NCBI GenBank assembly: GCA_021650915.1
Contig: CP091279.1
Location: forward strand, 1,500,001 to 1,532,000
Reading direction: 5' to 3'
Length of the DNA: 32,000 nt
Source of the DNA: Candidatus Brocadia sp.
GTDB taxonomy: Bacteria > Planctomycetota > Brocadiia > Brocadiales > Brocadiaceae
Below the pieces are notes generated by a model that ran no database searches, was not told where the DNA came from, and saw only the letters and a program-made list of their open reading frames with translations. Both the position numbers and the translations under genes were made by a program. This document shows positions 15,909 to 17,027 of this stretch, piece by piece (position 1 is the first letter of the stretch; each line of letters starts with the position of its first letter).

Positions 15909-17027
15909 TTACTCCAGAGTACAAATCGCTTGCGGGCATTTAATCCTGAGCACCGAACTGCCAACGACCCGGAACCGATGATTCAGGTTTTCCGGACCGC
16001 AGTACTCGACCTTAAAATTCCCCCCCACCGCCAAATCCGCATTTTGCCTGCCGGCTGCCATAACAAGGGCAACGTCTTTTTTCAGCACGGGGCTCTGGTA
16101 CACACCACCCTTCACCATCTCTTTTACCGCATCGATCTCTAACTTTCCCGTGCGTTCATACACCTTATGGAGCAATGCATAAAGCCGCGGACTCACCACA
16201 AGGGTATACGGCGGGAAAAATCCGGTATTCCTTAACTTCTCAACCGCAGCCACCACGTCCTGAAACCCGTTGCCAATGGCCGACCAGTCGCTAAGCTTCA
16301 TGATATTGCGTCCATTCACATTCAATAGTCCCGCCATGTTCATGTCCGGCAACCCGTTAAACACCAGGTCGTCTTCACGGGCGGCAGTGGCCACAGCTGC
16401 TCCGATTGCGGCGCTGGTATCGAGGGGAATTTCACCCTTCTTGCTCGCTTCGAGATCTCTCCAGAAGAGCCAGAAATCTTTGTAAATGACCGGTATATGC
16501 GCAACATCCCGCTTGAGTGAATGAATGGCATTGTCAGCCTCTCCAAGCATATCGACCGTCGCCCACGACGGAAGTCCAAACGTATCGATGGACACACACT
16601 GGCTTCCCACACCGAGGGGGCCATACGTTTCCAGAAACTTTCTGCCTACAAGACATTTTTCAATTGTTTCATGGACATGCCGCTGTAACTTTTCCCAGTC
16701 TTCGCGTCCCATTTCTCTTTCAGAAGAACCGCCTTTACCACCGCCCCCTTTTTCTTCCCCACAGGAACCCTTGCCACTACAGGAATCATTGGATGATGCC
16801 GCCAGATTTTTGGGGACCGCATGACAAGCAAGACAGCCCTGATTCAGATACTGACAATCTTTATGGACATTCCTCAATTCCTGGGAAGAATGACATGAAA
16901 AACAATCGTTTTCCTTCGTGCATTTTGCGTAAACAGGAGAAGCATTTTGCGGCAGGTAGAAAAGGGCAGATAGAGTAAAAATCCCGATAAACTGATATTT
17001 TTTGCAAAAATTCTTATAAATCTTCAT
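15909..17027 (-). CDS. Signal peptide + diheme cytochrome c + family-1 encapsulin shell protein fusion
   Basis: MKIYKNFCKKYQFIGIFTLSALFYLPQNASPVYA, then CFSCH and CLACH, then a Gly/Ser linker (GKGSCGEEKGGGGKGGSS). The remaining ~270 aa align by eye to the remembered T. maritima encapsulin (LVGRKFLETYGPLG, PPYTLVVSPRLY, KGGVYQSPVLKKDVALVMAAG...FKVEY). Start set at ATG 17027 (GAGGAGG 8 nt upstream) rather than the track start at 17051. Confidence 0.9.
   Translation of the reverse strand: MKIYKNFCKKYQFIGIFTLSALFYLPQNASPVYAKCTKENDCFSCHSSQELRNVHKDCQYLNQGCLACHAVPKNLAASSNDSCSGKGSCGEEKGGGGKGGSSEREMGREDWEKLQRHVHETIEKCLVGRKFLETYGPLGVGSQCVSIDTFGLPSWATVDMLGEADNAIHSLKRDVAHIPVIYKDFWLFWRDLEASKKGEIPLDTSAAIGAAVATAAREDDLVFNGLPDMNMAGLLNVNGRNIMKLSDWSAIGNGFQDVVAAVEKLRNTGFFPPYTLVVSPRLYALLHKVYERTGKLEIDAVKEMVKGGVYQSPVLKKDVALVMAAGRQNADLAVGGNFKVEYCGPENLNHRFRVVGSSVLRIKCPQAICTLE

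Follow-up and report, generated by a model that had tools for sequence, protein, structure and literature searches.

We analyzed a 32,000-nucleotide stretch of a Candidatus Brocadia genome (contig CP091279.1; hereafter "the window"), focusing on a minus-strand gene for an encapsulin shell protomer fused to a cytochrome c domain (cEnc) and on the gene directly downstream of it, which encodes the cargo protein NIR-HAO (Table 1). The open reading frame enclosing cEnc spans 15909..17051, and its most credible start is the ATG at 17027. Independent gene callers arrive at the same 372-residue product in at least four public assemblies, and an exact-sequence look-up found the identical protein in GCA_021463075.1 and GCA_021405145.1. 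The nearest genomes are all Brocadia, with Brocadia sp. WS118 (84%) and B. pituitae (81%) as the nearest species representatives in GTDB. A promoter and terminator scan of positions 13200-17900 returned no more matches than expected from shuffled sequence, with one decent promoter-like site 5' of cEnc, and an Rfam scan across the whole window gave no matches.

The C-terminal part of the precursor is an encapsulin shell domain. It matches Pfam Linocin_M18 (PF04454; E=1e-58, residues 115-363) and, at 238 bits, lies above the cut-off of 100 for the NCBIfam family 1 encapsulin equivalog NF041155; in the PDB, M. xanthus EncA (4pt2; E=1.9e-73 over residues 100-372) matches best. More distant family 1 structures, including those of Q. 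thermotolerans (6nj8) and T. maritima (3dkt), share the same HK97 shell over residues 100-372, with E values across the three from 1e-73 to 1e-7. These classical family 1 encapsulins are cytoplasmic, lack both a leader and a haem domain, and recruit cargo through a C-terminal targeting peptide, whereas the window protein extends for about a hundred residues ahead of the shell fold. A PDB sequence search gave no match for residues 1-93, the furthest N-terminal match beginning at residue 94. The range singled out by an earlier sequence-only reading of this locus (16700-17027) covers this extension, comprising the signal peptide, the dihaem domain, the linker and the first four residues of the shell domain (residues 1-109).

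Residues 1-34 of the precursor (MKIYKNFCKK / YQFIGIFTLSALFYL / PQNASPVYA↓KC, where the arrow marks the predicted cleavage site) show the n-h-c anatomy of a signal peptide. The n-region carries a net charge of +4; the h-region is uncharged, with a core of 13-15 residues closed by Pro26 and an 11-residue Kyte-Doolittle maximum of 2.26; and the c-region places V at -3 and A at -1. For comparison we used 55 Brocadiales-type and 65 other family 1 encapsulins from a search of 5.8 billion proteins, scoring a leader where a positive N-terminus and a conserved c-region accompanied a hydrophobic core, for which the Kyte-Doolittle maximum over 11 residues had to reach 2.0 or more in the first 40 positions. 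All 50 full-length Brocadiales-type homologues keep such a leader and a [S/G]x[V/A/S][F/Y][A/G]↓ c-region; 21 of them have haem sites as well, and 29 have the leader without any CxxCH. None of the 65 non-anammox relatives has such a leader, and those proteins begin a few residues before the shell fold. Among 148 further 50%-cluster representatives (1.84 billion proteins), a leader was found in one only, a Brocadiales-type fragment. When we looked for exported encapsulins outside Brocadiales in this representative library, the other N-terminal extensions proved to be His-rich or ferritin-like, and leaderless.

The cleavage site of the window protein aligns column for column with that of the SignalP-predicted K. 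stuttgartiensis cEnc leader (...SSAFA↓A). Published data on that ortholog point the same way: 14 of 15 predictors assigned a signal peptide to kuste2478 (shell) and kuste2479 (cargo), with no transmembrane helix and the class "anammoxosome" (Medema 2010 supplement), and the Kuenenia shell leader was called as Sec by SignalP and halved E. coli growth when present on the expressed construct. We also considered other leader types. A Tat substrate is rejected because the window leader has no RR, which occurs in only three of the Brocadiales homologues examined and never within the consensus S/T-R-R-x-F-L-K. A lipoprotein is rejected because VYA↓KC does not fit the lipobox [LVI][ASTVI][GAS]C, its Cys standing at +2, and the haem-less homologues have no Cys there. 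These comparisons support a leader of the Sec/signal peptidase I type on the window shell protomer, neither Tat nor lipoprotein.

Behind the leader, residues 35-72 match no Pfam or NCBIfam family but hold two CxxCH motifs; of 200,000 shuffled versions of the window shell protein, only a fraction of 5e-5 has two or more. The two sites form part of the extended motifs described for anammox cEnc by Giessen and Silver, CxxxxDCxxCH (residues 36-46) and ExxxxHxxCxYxxxxCxxCH (residues 50-69). In the 21 haem-bearing homologues the former is kept in 20 and the latter in 15 (20 in relaxed form). The linker between this domain and the shell varies in its cysteines: the window protein has two, other Brocadia have four or five (KGSCGDRKGCQGSCEGEKGCGG), and several haem-bearing homologues of about 70% identity (P0008, P0013, P0019) carry a PCVCP motif. 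These positions may be metal- or disulfide-forming sites.

The adjacent cargo combines two cupredoxin domains (Pfam) with eight CxxCH motifs. Its residues 323-838 match 6h5l in the PDB with E=1e-164, and residues 60-306 match small laccases. Its N-terminus (MVAKR/VAFGMVIMASFFLQV/CRVDA↓EIPC) also reads as a signal peptide. In at least 16 orthologs from Brocadia to Scalindua, divergent leaders are followed by a near-invariant mature start, EIP(C/Y)L..DGVV.LEMEARP, and because the mature N-terminus is conserved behind variable leaders, cleavage can be fixed at xYA↓EIP. SignalP 6 likewise gives the B. pituitae ortholog a 25-residue leader. The 3-nt spacing between cEnc and NIR-HAO suggests that the two genes are translationally coupled.

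The sequence-only reading had proposed a Sec-type n-h-c signal peptide and covalent-haem motifs on the shell protomer and a second signal peptide on the cargo (VDA↓E), and all three proposals hold up. Leader anatomy, the -3/-1 rule and conservation in 50 of 50 homologues agree on the first; the second is borne out by two CxxCH motifs within family-specific extended motifs, and the third by the cargo's N-terminal sequence and the mature start shared across orthologs. The strings it quoted from both N-termini also lie in the sequence where it placed them.

The closest characterized system is cEnc (kuste2478) and NIR-HAO (kuste2479) of K. stuttgartiensis. The two systems share a Sec leader, a dihaem domain with both extended motifs, a linker and a family 1 shell, and in both NIR-HAO follows directly downstream with its own leader and without a canonical targeting peptide. 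Compared with a Kuenenia-type protein (P0022), identity is about 64% overall and 72% in the shell domain; the leader sequences differ, and the linker is Gly/Ser/Lys/Cys-rich in the window but Pro/Ala/Gly-rich in Kuenenia. The window system is known from sequence alone, whereas particles and a haem spectrum come from Kuenenia. Brocadia orthologs (B. pituitae, sp. WS118, DTUAMX2, B. carolinensis) are 81-84% identical, have the same gene order (ATPase, ApbE, Trx, cEnc, NIR-HAO) and differ only in small ways, namely linker length and number of cysteines. Haem-less Brocadiales encapsulins (Scalindua, Kuenenia hertensis, Loosdrechtia, Avalokitesvara/RIFCSP types) share the leader, linker, shell and adjacent NIR-HAO but lack CxxCH and have an Ala/Glu/Gly-rich linker; in Scalindua types the cargo gene lies upstream of the shell gene and the shell carries a His/Cys/Asp-rich insertion. 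This insertion (P0047-P0055) is 10-30 residues long and follows RDIAAS (e.g. HDHDSSENH...HNHNHHGCIC; alignment A1, columns ~228-245). Archaeal ferritin-like fusions (P. furiosus 2e0z type) and encapsulins with His-rich extensions resemble the window protein in having an extra N-terminal domain on the shell that would face the lumen, but they have no hydrophobic leader and a different cofactor chemistry; the non-anammox relatives P0138, P0156 and P0210 carry His-rich N-terminal extensions. Overall, at the level of sequence the window protein is a family 1 encapsulin with every feature that defines the anammox cEnc/NIR-HAO system.

Very probably, then, the window gene encodes an anammox cEnc precursor whose shell and cargo are both exported by Sec and assembled after export, most probably in the anammoxosome. 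We read leader-directed export and haem attachment from the sequence together with established Sec and cytochrome c biology, and infer cargo export and assembly. The 34-residue leader would take the protomer, still unfolded, to SecYEG and through an energy-transducing membrane, most probably that of the anammoxosome, and signal peptidase I would cut after VYA. On the far side, System II (CcsBA) would attach two haems at CFSCH and CLACH, whose cysteines would be kept reduced by a ResA-like thioredoxin that is itself exported and may be the product of the gene just upstream. The cargo, co-transcribed and probably translationally coupled, would be exported separately by its own leader and would gain eight haems and copper. 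Sec substrates are unfolded chains, and neither Sec nor Tat passes a particle of about 30 nm; assembly would therefore have to follow export. Mature protomers would self-assemble and enclose the cargo in an icosahedral shell whose lumen is lined by the N-terminal dihaem domains; the outcome would be a protein compartment within a membrane compartment.

Several published observations fit this scheme. All anammox genomes examined are reported to encode System II, with c-type haem attachment on the p-side and modeled at the anammoxosome membrane; the window itself contains no Ccs genes. Kuenenia cEnc gave a haem c spectrum and 33-nm particles (Giessen and Silver), encapsulin has been found in an anammoxosome-enriched proteome, and iron-rich particles of about 25 nm have been seen inside the anammoxosome.

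Other observations weigh against it. In the enriched proteome encapsulin is present at a low level only. Assembly and haem loading have been seen only when Kuenenia cEnc was produced without its leader in the cytoplasm of E. coli, where haem was bound without export. Our call of the shell leader rests on manual n-h-c analysis, conservation and published ortholog predictions, and an AlphaFold2 model of the full precursor from a 30-sequence alignment was unusable (mean predicted local distance difference test score 43, predicted template modeling score 0.28). Furthermore, a syntenic cargo gene adjoins the shell gene, but a canonical C-terminal targeting peptide is not recognizable in its product; the same is true of NIR-HAO in the Kuenenia system (Giessen and Silver). 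The last ~25 residues of the cargo (13389-13460, minus strand; TRIQDEAvKLRRLKxLEeavKK) are conserved from Brocadia to Scalindua, and we considered this tail as a targeting peptide. We rejected it on finding that it aligns to the last residue of 6h5l, a stand-alone K. stuttgartiensis HAO-like paralog, so the tail probably belongs to the HAO fold. That paralog is not itself fused to an encapsulin, which leaves no recognizable sequence signal for cargo loading. Finally, no sequence feature is known that separates targeting to the anammoxosome from targeting to the periplasm.

This last point bears on where the exported proteins end up. Canonical Sec leaders occur on envelope and anammoxosome proteins alike, Sec is probably present in both membranes, and the authors of the B. 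pituitae MHAO study state that a leader alone cannot assign a compartment. Shell and cargo could thus cross the cytoplasmic membrane and form the nanocompartment in the periplasm (paryphoplasm), and an exported protein with an outer-membrane-barrel-like C-terminus (…VATYF) is encoded in the encapsulin gene neighborhood. We consider this location improbable. A composition-based classifier placed kuste2478 and kuste2479 in the anammoxosome class (Medema 2010), encapsulin peptides come from the anammoxosome-enriched proteome and the iron-rich particles of ~25 nm from inside the organelle, and essentially all haem c catabolic enzymes, together with the modeled Ccs machinery, are anammoxosomal.

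Two further explanations would do away with an exported closed shell altogether or set a cytoplasmic one beside it. Cleavage in orthologs has so far only been predicted, and Scalindua-type leaders have longer hydrophobic stretches of ~20 residues, as might be expected if the hydrophobic N-terminus were an uncleaved signal anchor and the protein a membrane-tethered, monotopic dihaem-encapsulin cytochrome that forms no closed shells. The window core of 13-15 residues is terminated by Pro, and the small-x-small site behind it is conserved in 50 homologues; kuste2478 has no transmembrane helix in the Medema table. Moreover, the N-terminus of family 1 encapsulins faces the lumen (in structures such as 4pt2 and 3dkt), where 60-180 tethered N-termini would be incompatible with a closed capsid, and the leaderless Kuenenia protein forms 33-nm capsids. 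An anchor is accordingly very unlikely, and a leaderless isoform that starts from Met106 within the protein (…SEREMGREDWEKL) and forms a shell in the cytoplasm, beside or instead of the exported one, is unlikelier still. Several database entries (P0018, P0023, P0027) are annotated from this Met, as is B. carolinensis in our open reading frame scan, and two possible starts were described for S. rubra, the shorter expressing better in E. coli (Tracey 2019). However, Met106 is conserved in the Brocadia subclade only, being I or L elsewhere (…IGHEDW, …LGHEDW), it has no good Shine-Dalgarno sequence in front, and once the octahaem cargo is exported, a shell in the cytoplasm would have no means of enclosing it. 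As for the short S. rubra annotation, an apparent frameshift between a normal leader-coding segment and the shell accounts for it. On contig MAYW01000038.1 (locus L020, 545-1713) the leader-coding segment is out of frame with the shell, the switch lying near 700 in a GAAGC-rich stretch. This frame switch, which is either an assembly error or a pseudogene, explains both the annotated 306-residue SCARUB_01799 without a signal peptide and the two starts of Tracey 2019.

Returning to Sec export and assembly after export, the sequence-only reading had drawn on haem ligation at the CxxCH motifs in arguing for export. The haem sites and the leader are there, but export does not depend on shell haems, as 29 of the 50 leader-bearing homologues have no CxxCH. 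The exported octahaem/copper cargo, which stands next to haem-bearing and haem-less shells alike, would be a more general reason for exporting the shell. In a neighbor-joining tree of the shell domain, calculated without support values, haem-less forms are basal (Scalindua, Avalokitesvara-type) and also interleaved with haem-bearing ones; this pattern suggests that Brocadiales encapsulins were exported from the start and acquired the dihaem domain afterwards, some losing it again.

The genes around cEnc and NIR-HAO extend this picture, and every soluble member of the neighborhood has its own leader. Directly upstream lies an exported thioredoxin-fold protein whose best NCBIfam match is ResA (83 bits, below the cut-off of 170) and for which ResA accounts for eight of the top ten PDB matches. 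ResA is the apocytochrome reductase of System II, which makes the window protein a candidate apocytochrome thiol reductase. In earlier work "Trx" was drawn as a possible secondary cargo; a role as a CcsX-like maturation factor seems no less likely. Further upstream, an FMN_bind-ApbE fusion, whose synteny with the encapsulin locus holds from Brocadia to Scalindua, could act outside the cytoplasm as a flavoprotein that partners the compartment. Beyond it, positions 19813-23098 (minus strand) encode four proteins that are also syntenic with the encapsulin locus: the P1B-type ATPase, two small membrane proteins (62 and 133 residues) and one with an HMA_2 domain. The transmembrane metal motif of the ATPase reads SCA, not CPC, and the enzyme could plausibly feed metal to the exported copper domain of the cargo. 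Loci of Brocadia and Jettenia keep the order ATPase, ApbE, Trx, cEnc, NIR-HAO, and those of Kuenenia hertensis and Scalindua keep part of it. From its gene content, the neighborhood resembles a kit for haem, copper and flavin maturation outside the cytoplasm.

Table 1. Features of the cEnc/NIR-HAO locus, in positions of the window
Feature	Position	Strand	Description	Basis
NIR-HAO cargo gene	13389..15905	-	838 aa; two-domain multicopper oxidase and octahaem HAO-like domain; start codon 3 nt after cEnc stop	
Cargo signal peptide	15831-15905	-	aa 1-25; predicted cleavage VDA↓EIP	
cEnc gene	15909..17027	-	372-aa precursor; cytochrome-c-fused family 1 encapsulin shell protomer; stop codon 15909-15911	
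HK97-fold encapsulin shell domain	15912..16712	-	aa 106-372	
Flexible linker	16713..16811	-	aa 73-105; Gly/Ser/Lys-rich, 2 Cys	
Dihaem cytochrome c domain	16812..16925	-	aa 35-72 (38 residues)	motif search, shuffles, conservation
CxxCH-2	16821-16835	-	CLACH, aa 65-69	
CxxCH-1	16890-16904	-	CFSCH, aa 42-46	
Shell signal peptide	16926..17027	-	aa 1-34; n-region 16998-17027, h-region 16953-16997, c-region 16926-16952; predicted signal peptidase I site VYA↓K	
Shine-Dalgarno sequence	17036..17041	-	AGGAGG, perfect; 8 nt 5' of ATG 17027	direct reading of sequence
Weak sigma-70-like promoter match	17182..17209	-	TGGAAA-16-TATAAT, 10/12; in 240-bp gap 5' of cEnc; candidate only	
Thioredoxin-fold protein	17268..17789	-	exported (WCSIC), ResA/CcsX-like	Pfam, signal peptide, conserved synteny
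FMN_bind-ApbE fusion	17830..19470	-	exported; flavin transferase with flavinylation-type TGAT site at aa 169; FMN_bind RnfG/NqrC-like	synteny
P1B-type heavy-metal ATPase	19813..21909	-		TIGR01525, 507 bits; synteny

Farther out in the window, positions 24313-27805 (minus strand) encode two more exported copper proteins, a 660-residue multicopper oxidase and a 382-residue cupredoxin/NirK-like protein. An ortholog of the latter directly adjoins the encapsulin gene in Scalindua loci L020-L022, and the Scalindua protein at that position was termed a "NiRK secondary cargo" (Tracey 2019). At 29675-31147 (minus strand) lies a gene for a 490-residue protein that combines a signal peptide and a charged, coiled-coil-like N-terminal region with a C-terminus (...VATYF) typical of outer-membrane beta-barrels; it has no Pfam or NCBIfam match, and homologues of 46-49% identity are encoded near encapsulin in Scalindua loci L021 and L022. 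On the plus strand, positions 2582-9169 hold an Rnf/Nqr-type membrane redox cluster with an Fe-S/Complex1_51K-like subunit, RnfD/NqrB, an FMN_bind subunit, a fused Rnf-Nqr membrane subunit and one that joins 2Fe-2S and NAD-binding parts. Next comes a 1266-residue UvrD/PD-(D/E)XK helicase-nuclease, whose gene and the cargo gene run toward each other.

Across Brocadiales, we lean slightly toward a general pattern in which export of the encapsulin is universal and ancestral, the shell follows its octahaem/copper cargo across the membrane, and the shell gene travels with a dedicated kit made up of an exported ResA-like Trx, an exported, self-flavinylating ApbE-FMN_bind fusion, and P1B ATPase and HMA_2 proteins, the Trx serving as a maturation factor. 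This generalization is not stated in the literature we reviewed, which mentions the leader for cEnc only. The system as such is established knowledge, and the premise of the sequence-only reading that known encapsulins are cytoplasmic overlooks the anammox cEnc family as a published exception. Medema 2010 predicted the Kuenenia orthologs to be signal-peptide-bearing and anammoxosomal, Giessen and Silver 2016/17 noted leaders on shell and cargo, and Andreas and Giessen 2021 proposed, almost verbatim, unfolded Sec export followed by haem maturation and capsid assembly in the anammoxosome; a 2024 review and a 2026 preprint repeat the export and anammoxosome hypothesis. Thus, the feature is real and its interpretation supported, and both have been published for the family since 2010-2021. 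Our additions are modest: the leader is independent of the haem domain, the Trx is possibly a maturation factor, and the locus is syntenic with exported maturation genes.

The window therefore provides a further example, from Brocadia, of the published cEnc/NIR-HAO system rather than a discovery. An encapsulin assembled after Sec export in a bacterial membrane organelle, as the published hypothesis has it, would be the only known case of an extracytoplasmic encapsulin, and it would bear on how anammox bacteria handle nitrite, NO, hydroxylamine or iron. A leader that is universal in the clade, independent of haem and accompanied by conserved maturation genes gives a cleaner framing for experiments on the N-terminus, localization and cargo loading of these compartments.

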